A stretch of DNA of 32,000 nucleotides, taken from Moraxella nasovis. GTDB taxonomy: Bacteria > Pseudomonadota > Gammaproteobacteria > Pseudomonadales > Moraxellaceae. How positions within the stretch are numbered: the stretch's first letter is position 1; every line of letters begins with the position of its first letter. The notes under the pieces are model-generated. The model did not search any database, was not told the DNA's origin, and was given only the letters and a program-made list of their open reading frames with translations. The position numbers and the translations under genes are program-made. Shown in pieces: positions 2-10,699 of this stretch. The stretch lies in assembly GCF_022701215.1 (NCBI RefSeq), contig NZ_CP089976.1, positions 90,001 to 122,000 of the forward strand. Direction: 5' to 3'.

Positions 2-874
2 CGTCAGCTTGAAGAAATCATCAAAGCAGGACGCATTTCTATTAATGGTACCATTGCTAGCCTTGGTGATCGTGCCACTCCCCAAGATGAAGTGCGTGTG
101 GATGGGCGATTGGTTCGCCTAAAAGCGGAGCGTGAGAAACGCCGCCGTGTCATCGCCTACTATAAGCCAGAAGGCGAAATCTCATCAGCGTCCGACCCAG
201 AAGGTCGCCCAACCGTCTTTGACCGCCTGCCCAAGCTCACAGGCGACAGATGGGTGATGGTTGGTCGCCTTGACATCAACTCATCAGGACTGCTGTTGTT
301 TACCAACGATGGCGAGCTTGCTCATCGTCTTATGCACCCATCTAGCGAGATTACTCGTGAATATGCCGTGCGTGTGCTTGGTGAAGTTAGCCCCCAAATC
401 GCCAAAAATCTCACCCAAGGCGTAGAGCTTGAAGATGGCATGGCAAAATTTGACGACATCAAAGAAGGCGGTGGCACAGGCGTGAACAAATGGTATCACG
501 TTAGCATTAAAGAAGGTCGCAAGCGTGAAGTTCGCCGTATGTTTGAATCCCAAGAACTCAAAGTCTCACGCCTAATTCGTACTCGCTACGGCACAGTCAT
601 TCTGCCAAAAGAGCTACGCACAGGACGCTTTCTTGAACTTGATGCCAAAGAGATTGGCAAACTCATTGAGACAGTCGGACTAAGGCCACGTCAAGGTACA
701 GGACTTAACACCACCACCAAAGAAAAACAAGCTCGTATCCACAAAAAACCGCTCAAATCCCGTGAAGTTCGCCGTCAAAAACACGAACGGCACGAACGTG
801 AAGAAAAACTCAAAAACCGTATGGGACAAAAACGCACGTCTAATTTTAAAAACGCACGTTTTACCAAAGTATGA
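2..874 (+). CDS. rluB: 23S rRNA pseudouridine synthase RluB (5' end lies outside the window)
   Basis: The frame is open from nt 2. The upstream part reads RQLEEIIKAGRISINGT, an S4 RNA-binding domain, so the GTG at 92 is internal. Catalytic GRLDINSSGLLLFTNDG motif and a Lys/Arg-rich C-terminal tail are typical of RluB. Confidence 0.85.
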   Translation, partial: RQLEEIIKAGRISINGTIASLGDRATPQDEVRVDGRLVRLKAEREKRRRVIAYYKPEGEISSASDPEGRPTVFDRLPKLTGDRWVMVGRLDINSSGLLLFTNDGELAHRLMHPSSEITREYAVRVLGEVSPQIAKNLTQGVELEDGMAKFDDIKEGGGTGVNKWYHVSIKEGRKREVRRMFESQELKVSRLIRTRYGTVILPKELRTGRFLELDAKEIGKLIETVGLRPRQGTGLNTTTKEKQARIHKKPLKSREVRRQKHERHEREEKLKNRMGQKRTSNFKNARFTKV

Positions 875-904
875 TTAAAAAAATATGATTAAAAATGATA
901 ACAA

Positions 905-928
905 ACACCCAAATTTTGGGTGTTTTTT
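905..928 (+). terminator. Rho-independent terminator after rluB
   Basis: Inverted repeat ACACCCAAA/TTTGGGTGT followed by a T-run, about 30 nt after the rluB stop. Confidence 0.75.
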
Positions 929-1028
929 GTTTGGGTGGTCATGATGGATTTATAACCTTTTTTTGATAAGAGCGTTTTATTGTACAATAAAGACAATCGC
1001 CATAATCTCATTGAACATCACTTATCTC

Positions 1029-1778
1029 CTAAGTCAAATGTATACATCTCACCACAGCCACACTCACATTATCTAGCTCGGCAATAGTCCGCTTTTTTAA
1101 TGCGGTAAAAATCTGAATTAGCCAATCTTTTAATGACATATTGGTTGGTAATGGCGGAAAATCATCAAACTCACCACAAAGACCATCACTACACAATAGT
1201 AATACTTCATTCTCTTTTAATTTTAATGACATTGAGCTTGCCAAATGTGTCTCATCATCACCTGTCAAATTATCCACACAAAAATATCCCATTAATCCAC
1301 CATAAAAACTGGCATATTCTTGATTAGAATCAACAGCATATGTTTTGGCAAGTTCATTAAAAACGGTATGGTCTTTGGTGAGACATCGCCACGCCTGCCC
1401 ATCATAATGATAAGCTCGACTATCACCCAGATGCTTGATGGTCAAACCATCGCCATCGCCATAAGCACATACCAATGTGCTACCACCGTCATCGCATACG
1501 CCCGCCAGCTTGTCATTTAATTCATTTTGCAACTTGGCAAAATCTACCATACCGTGTGCCTTATAGGCAGTTTTAAGCAAAGTAAGTAAAGTGCGAGCGG
1601 TGCGTGCCGAATGCGGACTTGTGGATACGCCGTCCGCTATCGCCACACAGCATTGGCTCGTGATGATTTGGCGACTGATTACGCCTTGATGTTGATACAC
1701 TTTGGGATAAATCAACAAAGCATCTTGTTGATACGCCCTGCCACCACGCCAAGTAAAGCCTTGAATTTGGTAACTCAT
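1029..1778 (-). CDS. PP2C-family Ser/Thr protein phosphatase
   Basis: PP2C motifs appear in order: RAYQQDA, VAIADGV, GSTLV, LGDSRAY, KDH, LLLCSDGL, DNVSVAVV. Preferred start is the ATG at 1778 (MSYQIQG), preceded by GGAG; the ORF-track start at 1814 looks over-extended. Confidence 0.8.
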   Translation of the reverse strand: MSYQIQGFTWRGGRAYQQDALLIYPKVYQHQGVISRQIITSQCCVAIADGVSTSPHSARTARTLLTLLKTAYKAHGMVDFAKLQNELNDKLAGVCDDGGSTLVCAYGDGDGLTIKHLGDSRAYHYDGQAWRCLTKDHTVFNELAKTYAVDSNQEYASFYGGLMGYFCVDNLTGDDETHLASSMSLKLKENEVLLLCSDGLCGEFDDFPPLPTNMSLKDWLIQIFTALKKRTIAELDNVSVAVVRCIHLT

Positions 1779-1860
1779 CGTTACTCCAAATAACAACCCA
1801 TCAAAAACGAACAATTTTTGATGGGCAAATGATCATACTCTATTGATTTATCGCTTTAAT

Positions 1861-2556
1861 TTAAAATCCACGTTTGGTTTTATATTCACGCAAAATCTCA
1901 CCAATTCTAGGGGCAAATTTAGCAATATATTCATCGGACAATCCCACTGAACCGCTCGGATGTGGTAGTGTTACCGTTCTACAATGTTCAAAATCTTGGA
2001 AAATCACTCGAAATTTCGCACCAGAAGTTTCAGCGGTTTCCACCACTCGCTCGCCAAGCTGTTTACCCAGCACCGCTTCAATTTTTGGCAAATTTTCCGC
2101 ACGATTGATAAAATCGGAATTTTTACTGCCCATAAACAATATCACGCTTGGCTCTAACGCCTGTAAAAATTCCACAAATCCATCGATACCCGCCGCAATT
2201 TCTTCATAATCTTCCACTCGATTGGCTTGGGTGTTTGAAAGATTGGTTTGCATAATGCTTTTTGTAAAATCATCACCCAAACCATCTCGGTCCATGCGAT
2301 GACCCCAAAGCTCAAACCATTTGATAATACGATTGTCATAAGGGACTTTTAGAGCTTTCTCGCCCAAAAATGGTGTTTTATTGGCAAAAGTAAATTGCAA
2401 ATCTTTTGGATTGGCTTGTACTTCGTCTGTAGCTGCCTGCTGTTCGTACTTTGCATCCGCTTTCGACTCGCCATATTCATAACCACAAATTACAAGTCCG
2501 TGTTTGTCATTTAAACCTTTAAAAAGGCTATTACCTAGATTTAAATTTTCGTGCAT
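1861..2556 (-). CDS. Hypothetical protein, possibly uracil-DNA-glycosylase-superfamily fold (divergent)
   Basis: ATG at 2556 is preceded by AGGAG (plus-strand ctcct, 2564-2568). Motif order resembles the UDG fold: GLVICGYEYGES (motif-A position, non-canonical), IMQTNLSN, PSVILFMGSKN, TLPHPSGSVGLS (compare Mug/SMUG motif B, PNPSGLS/HPSPRN). It lies 82 bp upstream of the PP2C gene on the same strand. The fold call comes from motif memory only. Confidence 0.4.
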   Translation of the reverse strand: MHENLNLGNSLFKGLNDKHGLVICGYEYGESKADAKYEQQAATDEVQANPKDLQFTFANKTPFLGEKALKVPYDNRIIKWFELWGHRMDRDGLGDDFTKSIMQTNLSNTQANRVEDYEEIAAGIDGFVEFLQALEPSVILFMGSKNSDFINRAENLPKIEAVLGKQLGERVVETAETSGAKFRVIFQDFEHCRTVTLPHPSGSVGLSDEYIAKFAPRIGEILREYKTKRGF

Positions 2557-2610
2557 AATTTTTCTCCTAATCAATTCTCACACAAAAAGACCAAAGCCCA
2601 CGTCATCGTG

Positions 2611-2619
2611 ATTATATCA
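2611..2619 (-). promoter_or_regulatory. Extended -10 (TGaTATAAT) for the UDG-like/PP2C cassette
   Basis: The minus strand reads TGATATAAT, 55 nt upstream of the ATG at 2556. A T9 run (plus-strand A9, 2619-2627) lies immediately upstream in the spacer. No good -35 was found. Confidence 0.45.
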
Positions 2620-2673
2620 AAAAAAAACGGTTCAACAAACCCAAAATACAACTTACCCAAGCCTTTTTAATAT

Positions 2674-2710
2674 TTTAAATCCACCCCAAATTTTGCTATA
2701 ATGGGGGGGG
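2674..2710 (+). promoter_or_regulatory. Orphan rightward promoter (TTTAAA-17 bp-TGcTATAAT) followed directly by a G8 tract
   Basis: TG at 2694-2695, TATAAT at 2697-2702, G8 at 2703-2710. There is no convincing ORF downstream for about 300 nt. Confidence 0.4.
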
Positions 2711-2785
2711 TACAAAACCTGATAACAATTTTTACAAATTAGAAATGTTTAAGCAATAAAGTGGGTTTTTTGCGTCAAAAGCTCG

Positions 2786-2806
2786 TTTGATAGAATGATT
2801 ATCAAA
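2786..2806. promoter_or_regulatory. Operator-like inverted repeat TTTGATA-N7-TATCAAA (Fur-box-like core GATAGAATGATTATC)
   Basis: Perfect 7-bp arms are seen directly. The resemblance to the Fur consensus GATAATGATAATCATTATC is partial. Confidence 0.3.
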
Positions 2807-3171
2807 TTTCACTTTTTCCTTGAAAAACATACGATTTGCCCTATTTTTCATTGCAAATATAAAAGTTCAACACGCCCCAGCCAAAAAAACAGCCAAATGA
2901 TTATAAGCAAAAGCCTAACCAACCTAAAACCACGCCACTACAAAGACAATTATCCATCGCCAAAACTTCCCTAAACATCGGTAAAAATTGGGCAAAAAGT
3001 GGCGTGTCTAGTCTATTTTTATCCAAAGAAGCGCGACAAATCCAAAAACACTCTTTATTACAAGAACAAGCCAATTATTTAATCGCAGAATTGGGCAAGC
3101 CCAAAGGCTCAGTGGTCAAAGTCGAGCAGATGCTTGCGTTATATGGCGAGCATTTTTTACCAAAAGAAGTC

Positions 3172-3600
3172 TTAAACGCCCTGCACACGCTCTAACAGCT
3201 TTTTGGCAAAACCTTTATCAAATTTATAACTTTTTAGATAACGATAAACCTGTGCAATTTGGCTATCACCATTCACATCTTGACCGCCAAAAATCTGCTG
3301 TAATTCATGGCTTAAATCCGCTCGATGCTCAAATTCAAGTTTTAGGTTAAATTCATGCTTTAACACCGATAATAGCAAAAACAATGTCGTCAGTCGCTGT
3401 TGTTCGTCAATGACTTCAAATTCATTATCTTTATCTTTACGCTGTTTTACGGTCAAATTACCGATATGGTAATTCTTGCTTGTATCATCGTTGCTTTTAT
3501 GCTTGGGGCGGATTTTTTTTTGACGCTTAAATAATTTCTCTGCTTTTTTTACTTGACAAAATCACCAAATTCTGTACCCAAATACCCCCAAAATCATGTT
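3172..3600 (-). pseudogene. Remnant of a DUF262 (ParB-like nuclease / GmrSD-type) gene
   Basis: The signature VIDEQQRLTTLFLLL (DUF262 DGQQRLTT motif) is present. The frame is open upstream to an in-frame TGA at 3562-3564 (…YRIW*FCQVKKAEKLFKRQKKIRP…), passes through an A9 run, and stops about 95 aa after the motif. Full-length DUF262 proteins are several hundred aa longer. Confidence 0.6.
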
Positions 3601-3718
3601 ACAAAAAAGTTTTAAAAGGTGGAACTTGCGTCAAGCCTTATCATATCTAGCCTAGGGAATTTTCTTAAAAAATGAATCACACCCCCATTAAAAATACAAG
3701 TAGATTTTGTAGAAATTT

Positions 3719-3764
3719 TAGGCTATATTGTGCCAAAATTTAGCAAAAGCACTATATCTTGTGA
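3719..3764 (+). promoter_or_regulatory. Putative tandem NrdR boxes upstream of nrdA
   Basis: Box 3749-3764 (gcaCtAtATcTtgtga) matches the published NrdR palindrome acaCwAtATaTwgtgt at 13 of 16 positions. A weaker box at about 3719-3734 (ggCTATATTGTGcc) lies about 30 bp upstream, roughly three helical turns. Confidence 0.45.
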
Positions 3765-3849
3765 TGATAATACAGTTTAGCCTATGATGGTAACTGCTTG
3801 AAATGTAATAAGTTTTGGTGCGATTTAAGATTTGGCTGAGAACTGATGG

Positions 3850-6135
3850 GTGAATGTGATGACCAATACAGATAAAATTAAAGTAACCAAGCGTGATGGT
3901 AGAGCAGAAGAGATTAACCTTGATAAAATCCATAAGGTGATCACATGGGCTGCCCAAGGTCTGGATAATGTATCTGTATCTCAAGTTGAGCTTAGATCGC
4001 ACATTCAGTTTTATGAAGGTATCGCAACCAAAGATATTCATGAAACCATCATTAAAGCGGCAGCTGATCTAATTTCAGTAGACACGCCTGATTATCAGTA
4101 TTTAGCTGCACGTCTAGCTATTTTTCATTTGCGTAAGATTGCTTATGGTCAGTACGAGCCGCCCCACCTACTAGACCATGTCAAAAAGCTGACAAAGGCG
4201 GGCAAGTACGATGAGCATATTCTTACTGATTACACCCAAGATGAGTTTGATGAGCTTGGTGCATACATTGACCACAGCCGTGATTTAAATCTTGCTTATG
4301 CAGCTGTTGAGCAAATGATGGGGAAATATCTCGTCCAAGACCGTGTTACCAAAACTGTCTTTGAAAGCCCACAGTTTTTATACATGCTTGTTGGCATGTG
4401 CTTATTTGCAAACTATGATAAAAACACTCGCTTAGATTATGTAAAGCGTTTTTATGATGCGACATCTAACTTTTACATCTCATTACCCACTCCCATCATG
4501 TCAGGCGTACGCACTCCGACTCGTCAGTTTAGCTCATGCGTGCTGATTGAGTGTGGAGATAGCCTAGATAGCATTAATGCGACCACCTCCGCCATCGTGC
4601 GTTATGTGTCTCAAAGAGCAGGTATTGGGGTCAATGCTGGTGCAATCCGTGCATTAGGCAGCCCTATTCGTGGCGGCGAAGCACAGCACACAGGCTGCAT
4701 TCCGTTTTTTAAGATGTTTCAAGCTGCCGTCAAATCCTGCTCGCAAGGCGGTGTGCGTGGCGGTGCTGCAACCTTATTTTATCCAATGTGGCATTTAGAA
4801 GTTGAAAACCTACTCGTGCTTAAAAATAACCGTGGTGTGGAAGATAACCGTGTTCGTCATATGGATTATGGCGTACAGATTAATAAGACCATGTACCAAC
4901 GCTTAATTAAAAACGAAAATATCACCCTATTTTCGCCATCGGACGTGCCAGGCTTATATGATGCGTTTTTTGCCAACCAAGATGAATTTGAACGCTTGTA
5001 CACGCTTTATGAAAATGACAAAAACGTCCGTAAGCGTCAAGTAAATGCCAGAGAGCTGTTTAGCTCAATGCTACAAGAGCGTGCCAGCACAGGGCGTATC
5101 TATATTCAGAACGTGGATCACTGCAATACACACAGCCCATTTGACCCAAGTGTCGCCCCTGTTCGTCAGTCAAACTTATGTATGGAAATTGCCCTACCAA
5201 CTAAGCCGCTTGACAATATCAATGATGTAAATGGTGAAATCGCCCTATGCACGTTGTCTGCGATAAACTTAGGCAAGATTCAAAGTCTAGATGATATAAA
5301 AGAGCCAGCAGAGCTGATTGTGCGTGCCTTAGATGCCCTGCTTGATTATCAAGACTACCCTGTACTTGCCGCCAAAAACAGTAGTCTTAACCGCCGTACA
5401 CTTGGCGTGGGTGTGATTAATTTTGCCTATTATCTTGCCAAAAATGGCACGCGTTATTCAGATACTGCCGCCTTAGGTTTAACGCATCGCACTTTTGAGG
5501 CTTTACAGTACCACCTACTTTGTGCATCTGTAAAGCTTGCCAAAGAACGTGGCAAATGCCCACTGTTTCATGAGACCACATACAGTCAAGGTATCTTGCC
5601 TATTGATACCTATAAATCTGACTTAGATACCATCTGCCATGAGCCTTTACATCTTGATTGGGAGCATTTGCGTTCTGAGATTATCACGCATGGACTGCGC
5701 AACTCAACACTATCTGCATTAATGCCGTCTGAGACATCAAGTCAGATTGCCAATGCAACCAATGGTATTGAACCGCCGCGGGGCCTAGTGTCTGTTAAGC
5801 AATCTAAAGATGGCATTTTAAAGCAAGTTGTTCCTGATATTGAAAAACTGGCAAGCTCTTATGAGTTACTTTGGCAAATGCCTGACAACAGCGGTTATCT
5901 TAGATTAGTTGGTATTATGCAAAAATTCATTGATCAAAGCATCTCTGCTAATACAAACTATGACCCATCTAAGTTTGAAGGCGGTCGAGTGCCAATGAAA
6001 GTAATGATAAGCGACTTACTCACCGCTTATAAATTGGGTATAAAAACCCTATACTACCATAACACTCGTGATGGAGCAGACGATTCTCATGAAGATTTAG
6101 ATGATGGTTGTGCAGGTGGTGCTTGCAAGTTGTAA
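3850..6135 (+). CDS. nrdA: Ribonucleoside-diphosphate reductase alpha subunit, class Ia
   Basis: The N-terminal ATP-cone (VTKRDGRAEEINLDKIHKVITWAAQGL) closely parallels E. coli NrdA. Also present are the active-site region NLCMEI and the C-terminal CxxxxC tail (CAGGACKL). The start may be GTG 3850 or ATG 3859. Confidence 0.95.
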   Translation: MNVMTNTDKIKVTKRDGRAEEINLDKIHKVITWAAQGLDNVSVSQVELRSHIQFYEGIATKDIHETIIKAAADLISVDTPDYQYLAARLAIFHLRKIAYGQYEPPHLLDHVKKLTKAGKYDEHILTDYTQDEFDELGAYIDHSRDLNLAYAAVEQMMGKYLVQDRVTKTVFESPQFLYMLVGMCLFANYDKNTRLDYVKRFYDATSNFYISLPTPIMSGVRTPTRQFSSCVLIECGDSLDSINATTSAIVRYVSQRAGIGVNAGAIRALGSPIRGGEAQHTGCIPFFKMFQAAVKSCSQGGVRGGAATLFYPMWHLEVENLLVLKNNRGVEDNRVRHMDYGVQINKTMYQRLIKNENITLFSPSDVPGLYDAFFANQDEFERLYTLYENDKNVRKRQVNARELFSSMLQERASTGRIYIQNVDHCNTHSPFDPSVAPVRQSNLCMEIALPTKPLDNINDVNGEIALCTLSAINLGKIQSLDDIKEPAELIVRALDALLDYQDYPVLAAKNSSLNRRTLGVGVINFAYYLAKNGTRYSDTAALGLTHRTFEALQYHLLCASVKLAKERGKCPLFHETTYSQGILPIDTYKSDLDTICHEPLHLDWEHLRSEIITHGLRNSTLSALMPSETSSQIANATNGIEPPRGLVSVKQSKDGILKQVVPDIEKLASSYELLWQMPDNSGYLRLVGIMQKFIDQSISANTNYDPSKFEGGRVPMKVMISDLLTAYKLGIKTLYYHNTRDGADDSHEDLDDGCAGGACKL

Positions 6136-8483: not shown

Positions 8484-10019
8484 ATGAAACATACCGCTAC
8501 TTTGCTTGCCGATATGGCAGCCAAACTTGATCAAAACACTGCCTTTAAAGACGCTGCACAAGATGAGATTGACGCCTTGCACGCCAAAATCGCTAAAGAG
8601 CTGGCAGATGACAGTCATACAGCATCAAACTTAGCTGATGTACAGCTGTCTTTAAGCGATTATTTAGAATCGGTTAAAATGGTGATTGATGATATGTTTA
8701 ATCACGACGTTTGGGTGCAAGCTGAAGTCCGATCAATCAACAGTAAAGGTGGGCATTACTATTTTGAATTAGCCCAAAAAGACGATTCAGGTAAAATCAT
8801 CGCTAGCACCAAGGCGACTTTATGGAAAAATCGTGCAAGCCTTGTTATTCATAAATTTATCAATCAAACAGGTAGAGAGCTAGAAGCAGGTGCAAGCATC
8901 TTAATAAAAGCGTCCGCTAAGTTTCATACTCAATACGGCTTTAGCATAAGTATCAGCGACATCGACCCCACTTATACACTAGGGGAGCTTGCCATCGCTT
9001 ATAACGCCATGCTTAAACGCCTGACAGAAGAAGGATTAACCACGCTTAATAAAAGCCTGCCTATGCCGCTTGACATCAAAAATGTCATCGTGGTCGCTCC
9101 AGAAAATGCCGCAGGATTGGGGGATTTTCGTGCTGAAGCTGACCGACTTCAGGCGGCTAATGCCTGTCAGTTTTATTATCATCATGCCACTTTTCAAGGA
9201 AATCACGCACCCCAAGAAATCCGCCTTGCTCTTAGCGGTGCTGTGCGTAACTTCATTAACATTCATGGGCATAAGCCAGACTTAATCGTTATTATTCGTG
9301 GTGGTGGTGCAGTTGGCGATTTGGCTTATCTCAACGATTATGAGCTTGCCGCCCTACTTGCTGAACAGCCTGTTCCTGTATGGGTTGGCATAGGGCATGA
9401 GCGTGACACGGTAATTTTAGATGAAGTGGCACATACTCGCTTTGATACACCATCTAAGGTGATTTTTGGTATTCAAAATCACCTTGTCGCCGTCATGACA
9501 GCTGCCAAATCCTTTATGAATAAGACGCAGCAAATTACCCAAAAGCAGCTAAATCACGCCAGCCAGACCAATCAAGCAAATCTAAAACGTGTGCAATTTG
9601 CCGCCAATAAATCGCTAAATCTTGCCAAAAAAGACAGTGAGTACGCCATTAAACATACCGAACTACTCTCTCGTCACGCCCTAAAAACAAGCTTTGATGA
9701 TATTCACACCAAATACCAAACTTGTCGTTTAGGGGCTTTTACTCAGCTTGAGACCGCCAAAAAGCACATTCATCATTATCGCCAAACTCATCAAAAGCTT
9801 CAATCTAAACTTTTTGCAATCGCCCAAGAATGTCGCCATTTACAAAGCCTAATTCTCATTCAGCATCCTAGACGCACTCTAGAAAAAGGCTATGCGATAG
9901 TACGTACCAAGCAAGGATTAATTATAGATAATGTAAATACATCTTTACAAAGCGACCGTCTTACTATTGAATTTGCAGATGGTAAAATTTGTGCTAAACC
10001 CATTGATAAAGTCACTTAA
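8484..10019 (+). CDS. xseA: Exodeoxyribonuclease VII large subunit
   Basis: OB-fold N-terminal region (VWVQAEVRSINSKGGHYYFEL), catalytic core (IIRGGGAVGDL), and a long helical C-terminus. It has about 45-50 extra N-terminal residues compared with my recollection of E. coli XseA. Confidence 0.85.
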   Translation: MKHTATLLADMAAKLDQNTAFKDAAQDEIDALHAKIAKELADDSHTASNLADVQLSLSDYLESVKMVIDDMFNHDVWVQAEVRSINSKGGHYYFELAQKDDSGKIIASTKATLWKNRASLVIHKFINQTGRELEAGASILIKASAKFHTQYGFSISISDIDPTYTLGELAIAYNAMLKRLTEEGLTTLNKSLPMPLDIKNVIVVAPENAAGLGDFRAEADRLQAANACQFYYHHATFQGNHAPQEIRLALSGAVRNFINIHGHKPDLIVIIRGGGAVGDLAYLNDYELAALLAEQPVPVWVGIGHERDTVILDEVAHTRFDTPSKVIFGIQNHLVAVMTAAKSFMNKTQQITQKQLNHASQTNQANLKRVQFAANKSLNLAKKDSEYAIKHTELLSRHALKTSFDDIHTKYQTCRLGAFTQLETAKKHIHHYRQTHQKLQSKLFAIAQECRHLQSLILIQHPRRTLEKGYAIVRTKQGLIIDNVNTSLQSDRLTIEFADGKICAKPIDKVT

Positions 10020-10027
10020 GGATAATC

Positions 10028-10699
10028 ATGACTGTTTTTTCTGCTCAAAACGCCAAAGACATTGCCAGCAGTCGCTATACTTGCAAGGCATACGACCCTA
10101 ATAAACCGCTTAATGATGATACAATCAAGCAACTACTTGAGACTTTAAGACTCTCACCATCATCAATTAACATTCAGCCGTGGCGTTTTTTAGTAGCAGA
10201 TAACGCTACTGCTAAAGTCAAAATCTGCCAAAGCATGATAGGCAATGGTGAGCATAATGTCGCTAAAGTTATGAATGCTTCTCACGTTTTGGTGCTGTGC
10301 ACCAAGACATCTTTAGACACAAGGCATCTTGATAATGTATTACATGCTGAACATAAAGCAGGACGTTTTAGCTCAAATGAAGCGATGACAGCTCGTAAAC
10401 AGCATTGTATGACGTACTTACAACCCCTACAGCAAGACCCAAAAAAGCTTTTTATATGGAGCGAGCAACAAACCTTTATCGCTTTAGGTCATTTTTTATT
10501 TGCTGCCCAAATAGCAGGCGTAGCAGCCACGCCAATTGGTGGATTTAATGTCCAGATTTTAAATGACATCTTACACTTGGCAGATCGCCATTTGACAAGT
10601 TCAGTTATCGTTGCCTTGGGCTATCCTAGTAAAGATGAGCCAAATCAGCATCTACCAAAAGCACGATTAGATGCCGATCAAGTCATCGAATTTATCTAA
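10028..10699 (+). CDS. NAD(P)H nitroreductase family protein (NfsB/NfnB-like)
   Basis: SRYTCKAYD…PSSINIQPWRF is the hallmark nitroreductase N-terminus. 223 aa, with an AAGGA RBS. Confidence 0.8.
   Translation: MTVFSAQNAKDIASSRYTCKAYDPNKPLNDDTIKQLLETLRLSPSSINIQPWRFLVADNATAKVKICQSMIGNGEHNVAKVMNASHVLVLCTKTSLDTRHLDNVLHAEHKAGRFSSNEAMTARKQHCMTYLQPLQQDPKKLFIWSEQQTFIALGHFLFAAQIAGVAATPIGGFNVQILNDILHLADRHLTSSVIVALGYPSKDEPNQHLPKARLDADQVIEFI

Follow-up and report, generated by a model that had tools for sequence, protein, structure and literature searches.

A uracil-DNA-glycosylase-fold gene beside a PP2C phosphatase gene and a type IV restriction gene remnant in Moraxella nasovis: a candidate remodelled anti-phage cassette

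A stretch of 32,000 nucleotides of the Moraxella nasovis chromosome (NZ_CP089976.1, positions 90,001 to 122,000; here called the window, with its first letter as position 1) carries, between rluB and nrdA, a segment of about 3 kb with a gene for a protein of the uracil-DNA glycosylase (UDG) superfamily, a gene for a PP2C phosphatase and the remnant of a type IV restriction gene. The left flank of this segment (875-3849) is the 3′ part of the pseudouridine synthase gene rluB (92-874, plus strand; Pfam PseudoU_synth_2, E=2.7e-21), and the right flank is nrdA (3850-6135, plus strand), which encodes the class Ia ribonucleotide reductase alpha subunit with the Pfam domains ATP-cone, Ribonuc_red_lgN and Ribonuc_red_lgC. 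The UDG-superfamily gene (1861-2556, minus strand) encodes 231 aa of no named family, for which we use the label UDGL, and starts with an ATG behind an AGGAG ribosome-binding site. It is followed, after 82 bp and in the same orientation, by an intact gene for a 249-aa PP2C-type Ser/Thr phosphatase (1029-1778, minus strand; Pfam PP2C_2; GGAG upstream). An earlier note, made from the DNA letters alone, had already placed two co-oriented genes of these lengths at this spacing, and its coordinates are correct. Since both have many homologues with conserved motifs, they are real genes and not chance open reading frames (ORFs). On the other side of UDGL, the sole coding trace in the 1293 bp from 2557 to 3849 is a fragment with a GmrSD_N (DUF262) domain.

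Upstream of UDGL, an extended -10 promoter-like element, TGATATAAT (2619-2611, minus strand), can be read off the sequence 55 nt from the start codon; a two-hexamer promoter scan missed it because its -35 is poor. The element was previously taken for one promoter shared by both genes. It is indeed present, but its use by PP2C as well as UDGL is conjectural, and a terminator-like hairpin (1796-1826, minus strand; a 13-pair stem, then TGTTATTT) lies between the UDGL stop codon and the PP2C start. Folding of the 96 nt that span this hairpin (1770-1865) gives -21.5 kcal/mol (z=-2.67), and hairpins just upstream of the PP2C start can be found by eye in four related loci (L001, L055, L057, L062). 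A bidirectional terminator-like hairpin with a 10-bp stem and T-runs on both strands separates the convergent rluB and PP2C genes (903-925). The GC content of the insert is 0.375, against 0.423 for the whole window, 0.401 for the UDGL gene and 0.420 for the PP2C gene. Thus, the description of the cassette as AT-richer than its surroundings holds for the insert as a whole, but the effect is modest and mostly contributed by non-coding DNA.

An alignment of 43 UDGL homologues was used for an AlphaFold2 model of the window protein, which reached a predicted local distance difference test score (pLDDT) of 89.6 and a predicted template modelling score (pTM) of 0.89. When the model was compared with the PDB by Foldseek, 54 matches were obtained at E<=0.001, and the best 50 of the 54 all belong to the UDG superfamily. 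They include family 4 enzymes of Sulfolobus and Thermotoga, human TDG, E. coli MUG and mycobacterial UdgX; the closest structure is 4ZBY, the family-4 UDG of Sulfolobus tokodaii. The top matches have E values of about 1e-5, with template modelling (TM) scores of 0.43-0.58 at 11-16% identity. Among the BFVD matches are proteins annotated as UDGs, and phage DNA polymerases with a fused UDG-like domain. The Pfam UDG profile (PF03167) reaches the window protein at E=0.0084 and 16.6 bits, below its gathering threshold of 24.3 bits, and a weak match (E<1) is seen in 32 of the 43 members, the best at 2.8e-4. A search with the UDGL profile against PDB chain sequences returned noise only (SOS1, E about 0.6), and the protein is without a family assignment in Pfam, NCBIfam or PADLOC. 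The UDG-like character suggested in the earlier note is thus supported at the level of the predicted fold, and we regard UDGL as a rare, unnamed branch of the uracil-DNA-glycosylase fold.

The conserved residues of UDGL follow the motif order of the canonical UDG families 1-6 (Ung, MUG/TDG, SMUG, family 4/5, HDG and UdgX), with which it shares the core alpha/beta fold: motif A after strand 1, an Asn after strand 2 and an HPS-type motif B. Motif A, CGYE(Y/W)G, comes directly after strand 1 (residues 21-25), and its residues C24, G25, E27 and G29 are invariant in the 43 sequences. Equally invariant are Q103 and N105 of a QTN motif at the end of strand 2 (101-105), G143 after strand 3, and P198, H199 and S201 of a PHPS motif after the last strand (193-197). 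All of these motif residues stay invariant down to 37% identity; catalytic roles were assigned to them by position only. Unlike the canonical enzymes, UDGL has its motif A Glu in GYExG rather than in GQDPY, GINPG or GEAPG, and the low TM scores, the low identities and the sub-threshold Pfam score set it further apart. The four 4Fe-4S cysteines conserved in family 4/5 UDGs are absent from the alignment, in which C24 is the one invariant cysteine and C192 is nearly so. In a divergent UDGL subfamily, motif A reads CGINHG, with Asn in place of Glu as in MUG and TDG; this swap is the kind of variation at a catalytic position that is seen between UDG families.

The Brig proteins are among the closest known systems. 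Brig1 excises alpha-glucosyl-hydroxymethylcytosine (hmC) (PMC11078745); Brig2, found by a structure-guided search, acts against phages with modified thymidines (10.1101/2025.10.29.685425); and Brig3 excises hmC after an accessory hydrolase, BapA, has removed the glucose (10.64898/2026.02.25.707755). Like these three, UDGL is a single-domain UDG-fold protein in the range of about 230-260 aa that occurs sporadically in defence-type, mobile or AT-richer contexts, and 4ZBY, its best structural match, is also the one reported for Brig1 (PMC11078745). The brig1 and brig3 genes are reported to adjoin genes for ADP-ribose hydrolases (ADP-ribosyl glycohydrolases), which recalls the Macro-domain gene beside UDGL in Acinetobacter described below, and Brig3-BapA provides a precedent for an accessory enzyme in the operon of a glycosylase. 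Differences are equally clear: motif A of Brig1 is LGLNPG, the NFE catalytic segment of Brig1 is absent from UDGL, and the literature that we searched links none of the Brig proteins to a PP2C.

UDGL is rare. An exhaustive profile search of 1.84 billion representatives gave 188 clusters at 50% identity, and a scan of 185,579 species genomes (one genome per species) found the gene at 53 loci, patchily spread over Moraxellaceae, Neisseria, various beta-, alpha-, gamma- and epsilon-proteobacteria and one Cyanobium. The ORFs of the neighbourhoods were called and clustered and their representatives annotated, and no one partner gene proved to be conserved across them. Three neighbourhoods are of defence type. 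In Cyanobium (L026, 6679-8696), a gene for a Phage_int_SAM_4 tyrosine recombinase, whose sequence may be integron-integrase-like, lies 188 bp upstream of UDGL on the same strand, with hsdM, a type I restriction-modification methylase gene, downstream. In L041 the order is DUF2971, UDGL, PDDEXK_4, and in L143, a metagenome locus, the UDGL strand also carries Fic, SIR2, a NucS-like nuclease and a WYL regulator, with a PP2C gene on the other strand. In seven Acinetobacter loci (L019, L023, L043-L047), the Macro-domain gene (PF01661, E=7.6e-41; at about 8690-9240 of the locus) follows UDGL by 5-8 bp with varying upstream flanks, and a Fic/Doc gene occupies the opposite strand. L036 has a double AAA ATPase gene, UDGL (8823-9470) and then a second, different UDG-superfamily gene (9646-10188; motif GINPGG, Pfam UDG E=6e-4), behind which comes a gene whose product has an FtsK_gamma-like domain; in the metagenome locus L089, too, there is a double AAA ATPase gene, here after UDGL.

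Other copies stand among genes of quite different kinds. In Neisseria the order is rsmD, a small membrane ORF and UDGL, then topA, and in Moraxella boevrei and a Moraxella metagenome-assembled genome (MAG) UDGL is found within the cell-division gene cluster, in the order murC, DUF2281 antitoxin-like ORF, UDGL, ddl. A 75-aa ORF of this antitoxin type overlaps the UDGL start in L003 (7768-7995) and L002 (7729-7980). Four Psychrobacter species (L020, L022, L051, L018) have the order nrdA-UDGL-nrdB-yfaE, and in one of them, P. proteolyticus (L018), UDGL is pseudogenised, being split into fragments of 135 and 95 aa; Guyparkeria (L029) has nrdA-nrdB-UDGL. With the window, where UDGL is divergent from nrdA, this makes three arrangements in which UDGL is inside or next to the operon for class Ia ribonucleotide reductase. 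UDGL lies beside nrd genes more often than chance adjacency would place it there, and this could reflect either an insertion hotspot or a link to deoxynucleotide metabolism.

At least seven UDGL members, all of the divergent CGINHG subfamily, are fused to an FtsK_gamma winged-helix DNA-binding domain (P0084, P0089, P0104, P0119, P0120, P0128 and P0129; E<=1.4e-4), and an eighth, P0115, matches at E=0.006. The domain stands at the N-terminus in some fusions and at the C-terminus in others. A hidden Markov model made from the free-standing FtsK_gamma gene of PP2C cassettes, to which we return below, matches six of the fusions (E 1e-9 to 1e-3). The fusions support DNA as the substrate of UDGL and also connect UDGL with the parts of which the PP2C cassettes are made up. 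Another member, P0134 (587 aa), has an unannotated N-terminal extension of 350 aa.

Turning to the second intact gene, the 249-aa protein scores above the Pfam cut-offs for both PP2C_2 (30.3 bits, cut-off 24) and PP2C (24.2 bits, cut-off 20.3). In an alignment of 27 sequences of its clade, the metal-binding residues D19, D49-G50 and D198-G199 are invariant and D236-N237 nearly so. Its identification as a PP2C with an intact set of catalytic Asp residues is therefore supported. It shares fold and catalytic residues with the Stp1/IreP and PDC-M21 PP2Cs. It falls far under the cut-off of the Stp1/IreP equivalog (NF033484, Stp1_PP2C_phos; 56.5 bits against 230) and matches the PADLOC model PDC-M21C weakly (E=1.7e-4, 18.9 bits), and its neighbouring proteins match no PDC-M21 model. 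No partner kinase is seen at the window, and none is encoded in the PP2C cassettes.

Whether UDGL and PP2C co-occur elsewhere had been put forward as a check on the pairing. Orthologues of the window PP2C (about 50% identity; Moraxella bovis, Moraxella sp. FZFQ2102, several assemblies) stand instead beside a two-gene DUF262/GmrSD system, about 55 bp downstream of it and beyond a hairpin. The first gene of this GmrSD pair encodes GmrSD_N+DUF7834 (about 444 aa) and the second GmrSD_N+GmrSD_C (628-691 aa). The pair with its PP2C occupies at least three chromosomal sites, flanked for example by fumC and ABC transporter genes in one case versus a histidine kinase gene and surA in another. The window remnant and the intact Moraxella pairs match the PADLOC Orf5, HEC-06 and SspE-type DUF262 models. 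The architecture of the pairs, with a DUF262-only protein encoded first and a DUF262+DUF1524 protein second, to which the window remnant also conforms, is that of TgvAB, which restricts glucosyl-hmC phages in Vibrio cholerae (PMC11014532). The Moraxella systems carry PP2C as a third gene, which the descriptions of TgvAB and GmrSD do not include. In FZFQ2102 the GmrSD gene is split by an IS1595 element and PP2C is intact; in L058/L059 PP2C stands alone, and the spacer upstream keeps the 3′ end of a GmrSD gene. Such persistence of PP2C without its GmrSD partner suggests that it is kept for a reason independent of the restriction genes.

The remnant in the window is the N-terminal DUF262 part of a TgvB/GmrSD-like type IV restriction gene (3175-3519, minus strand; 115 codons; Pfam GmrSD_N E=4e-8, 34.0 bits against a cut-off of 33.2). 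In L062, L067 and L068 the gene before PP2C encodes a 628-aa protein, and the translated remnant aligns with residues 43-153 of it at 51% identity over 115 aa; with a protein of L057 the identity is 61% over 80 aa. The remnant is the N-terminal part of the second gene of a TgvAB-like GmrSD pair. No GmrSD_C and nothing else of either gene of the pair is left in the window; with the second gene cut down to about 115 codons, the restriction system is dead. The place of the bulk of the GmrSD gene is taken by non-coding filler (2557-3174, GC 0.358) that gave no tblastn match to the proteins of about 150 related loci, and a small plus-strand ORF (3004-3195) has no Pfam match. The DUF262 remnant previously noticed in this non-coding DNA is therefore genuine and now extends over 3175-3519. 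Because the PP2C orthologues adjoin the GmrSD pair, the seemingly decayed neighbour is best seen as the original partner of PP2C, and UDGL as the newcomer.

Comparison of the rluB-nrdA locus across Moraxella bears on how this segment came to lie there. The window NrdA has at most 87% identity to any database protein, and its best matches are all from Moraxella. A Moraxella genome without the cassette (L147, CP089977.1) has scpA-scpB-rluB, 459 bp and then nrdA, and in M. nasibovis, M. bovoculi and M. haemolytica putA, not rluB, is upstream of nrdA. Therefore, the 3-kb segment is an accessory insertion, in keeping with the accessory pocket of the earlier note, for which a defence-type setting is likewise supported. 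The rluB-nrdA spacer of L147 and the window insert have no common sequence, and no direct repeats were found at the insert edges. A 233-aa gene after nrdB-yfaE in L147 was considered as a UDGL member and rejected, as it encodes an unrelated secreted protein.

The wider company of the PP2C clade was obtained from a metagenome scan with the PP2C alignment, which gave 80 loci that were then treated by tblastn, clustering and annotation. Five arrangements stand out: (i) the GmrSD pair and PP2C (about 10 loci); (ii) with the order permuted, PP2C, a 70-aa FtsK_gamma winged-helix protein and the GmrSD pair (11 loci, in a clade of 37-40% identity); (iii) PP2C, FtsK_gamma and a PDDEXK_4 nuclease (PADLOC PDC-S26; 4 loci); (iv) DUF2779, PP2C, a WYL-WCX regulator, a small protein k20 and a variable last gene; and (v) PP2C, DUF2779, k20 and the GmrSD pair (L126 and L128). 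In arrangement (iv), the last gene is UDGL in L089, with intergenic gaps of 11-59 bp, and in L092/93 it encodes another protein, of 187 aa. Comparison of the window and L089 with the GmrSD-pair cassettes thus places UDGL in the GmrSD slot of two PP2C cassette architectures. The free-standing FtsK_gamma gene lies between PP2C and the effector genes in 19 cassettes. The PDDEXK_4 nuclease, a candidate single-gene system in PADLOC, recurs beside the PP2C clade (L060, L061, L069, L070; L084; L125), often behind the FtsK_gamma gene, and PDC-S26 may in some genomes be part of a larger PP2C-containing system. A further 35 or so metagenome loci (L094-L121, L129, L131), with PP2C homologues of 31-34% identity, show another conserved neighbourhood made up of the clusters k3, k2, k7, k5 and k10.

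How often, then, do UDGL and this PP2C meet? Among the 53 UDGL genome loci, one has PP2C immediately downstream: L001, an Acinetobacter MAG whose UDGL and PP2C are 64% and 50% identical to the window proteins and whose flanks are pabB, an rluA-like gene and rapA. In L039 PP2C is two genes from UDGL on the other strand, and 50 of the 53 have no relative of the window PP2C within 8 kb (tblastn, E<=1e-3). From the PP2C side, UDGL is present in 2 of the 80 metagenome loci. In all, UDGL lies within 5 kb of the PP2C clade in five loci (the window, L001, L039, L089 and L143), which represent three UDGL subfamilies. Since UDGL is so rare, this co-occurrence is far above chance, although common residence in defence islands could explain part of the excess. 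Accordingly, the idea of a UDGL-PP2C module survives in the sense of a recurrent association, but not as a dedicated or conserved pair. The remark that no described system pairs a glycosylase with a PP2C still stands: the searched literature holds no report pairing a glycosylase, or a GmrSD/TgvAB system, with PP2C, and a paper on a Moraxellaceae WYL activator mentions none of the cassette genes.

We propose that the insert holds a remodelled anti-phage cassette in which UDGL would be a modified-base glycosylase and PP2C a common accessory, an explanation that we hold, taken as a whole, to be somewhat on the probable side. The ancestral unit would have been the three-gene set still intact in Moraxella bovis and relatives, namely DUF262+DUF7834, the DUF262+DUF1524 (GmrSD) nuclease and PP2C. 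As deduced from those genomes, PP2C would have arrived with the GmrSD pair, and UDGL would later have replaced most of the pair. In the present state the first gene is gone, and the second is a 115-codon N-terminal fragment followed by about 600 bp of unrelated DNA; UDGL, with its own promoter-like element and terminator-like hairpin, lies directly upstream of an intact PP2C gene. UDGL would act as a monofunctional DNA N-glycosylase, with its three motifs forming the pocket that receives the flipped base, which is most likely a modified pyrimidine. Where other UDG families have a catalytic Asp or Asn, UDGL would have Glu27 of CGYE(Y/W)G, and His199 of PHPS would correspond to the leaving-group histidine of Ung. 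The abasic sites so made would block phage DNA replication, as for Brig1, Brig2 and Brig3. That UDGL is such a Brig-like effector against modified phage DNA, as its fold, motifs, fusions and gene context suggest, we consider an evenly balanced proposition or one tipped slightly in its favour. PP2C, for its part, is best read not as a dedicated partner of UDGL but as a shared accessory or regulatory component that works with exchangeable DNA-targeting effectors, be they the GmrSD pair, the PDDEXK_4 nuclease or UDGL, and that probably controls or protects the effector by dephosphorylation. A functional link of this kind is plausible, because the co-occurrence is above chance and UDGL occupies the GmrSD slot of two cassette types.

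Several observations weigh against this explanation. UDGL has no PADLOC match. Comparison of its profile by hhalign with Brig1, the Brig protein covered by the sequence comparison (sequence from the supplement of the Brig1 paper), gives E=0.62 over 15 columns and thus no detectable similarity; with Ung the hhalign result is likewise not significant, and the PHPS motif is all that the two have in common. The ancestral state is deduced from other genomes, and L001, the closest relative with the same pair, has no GmrSD remnant. The GC content of the UDGL gene lies about 2 points under the window mean. PP2C is intact where GmrSD is lost or broken (the window, L058/L059 and L054), and its role may be unrelated to any effector. 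Finally, many UDGL genes are solitary within housekeeping arrays, which a role in repair or in the nucleotide pool would fit equally well.

That last possibility deserves to be weighed in full: UDGL could be a housekeeping or back-up repair glycosylase for uracil, hypoxanthine or another lesion, or a nucleotide-pool enzyme, with its adjacency to PP2C and GmrSD incidental. Its Ung-like active-site logic (an acidic residue in motif A, the Asn that ends strand 2, the His of PHPS) is kept, and besides lacking a PADLOC match it lies in or beside the ribonucleotide reductase operon in Psychrobacter, Guyparkeria and the window, in the cell-division (dcw) cluster, and next to topA. Even Brig1 and Brig3 keep residual uracil activity (10.64898/2026.02.25.707755). 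The distribution of UDGL is, however, extremely sparse and patchy for a repair enzyme, with the counts given above, and within Psychrobacter it is found in a few species only and decayed in one of them. It recurs with WYL regulators, SIR2, nucleases, restriction-modification genes and a recombinase, and it substitutes for type IV restriction genes, so that we regard a repair role as improbable. We think it a little less improbable, though still unlikely, that UDGL and PP2C form a dedicated two-gene, phospho-regulated module for defence or stress that targets DNA bases and shares one transcript from the promoter at 2611-2619. In the window and in L001 alike the two genes adjoin in one orientation, despite different flanks, and the pair has therefore persisted or moved as a unit; same-clade PP2C genes lie within 5 kb of UDGL in L039, L089 and L143, across three subfamilies; and a very rare gene such as UDGL appears twice among the 80 PP2C-anchored loci. 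Against this, nearly all UDGL genome loci (50 of 53) lack a related PP2C nearby, the usual companions of the PP2C clade are GmrSD or PDDEXK_4, and a terminator-like hairpin separates the two genes in the window. In L089, moreover, a WYL regulator gene and a small gene stand between the two, and in L143 the two lie 4 kb from each other on different strands.

The least probable of the alternatives, to which we give little credence, is that UDGL is the toxic part of a toxin-antitoxin-like or abortive-infection pair that attacks normal bases once released and is neutralised by DUF2281, the Macro domain or PP2C. It draws on the antitoxin-type ORF that overlaps the UDGL start codon in Moraxella boevrei and Moraxella sp., and on the closely spaced Macro-domain gene of the seven Acinetobacter loci, which recurs with varying flanks and an adjacent Fic/Doc gene. 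The absence of any one partner conserved across the family speaks against it, as do the many solitary copies in Neisseria and Psychrobacter; solitary copies that are intact argue against intrinsic toxicity. The remodelled cassette can also be read more broadly. In a more far-reaching form, which we put forward tentatively and regard as rather doubtful, there would exist a class of modular, modification-dependent anti-phage cassettes in which PP2C is the shared regulatory or licensing subunit, often with an FtsK-gamma protein, a WYL regulator or a DUF2779 nuclease, and the effector is exchangeable. The window would then record the exchange of a DNA-cleaving effector for one that excises bases, and UDGL would add to the defence glycosylases a fourth lineage, independent in sequence, with a modified-base specificity of its own.

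Base-excision defence has been known only since 2024, with Brig1, and is being extended to glycosylase lineages that sequence searches missed. To judge from this locus, there is one more UDG-fold family, small and unannotated, with no Pfam, NCBIfam or PADLOC model but with intact active-site motifs and DNA-binding fusions, and it repeatedly substitutes for type IV restriction genes. There is also a lesson for annotation, as an intact gene may have had for its original partner what now looks like a decayed neighbour. We therefore re-read the locus not as a UDG and PP2C cassette next to a decayed neighbour but as a GmrSD and PP2C cassette whose restriction genes have been replaced by a UDG-fold gene. 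The locus further shows that TgvAB-like restriction systems and related cassettes have PP2C as a conserved third gene, of which the searched literature holds no report; if this is true, phospho-regulation of modification-dependent restriction would be directly testable.

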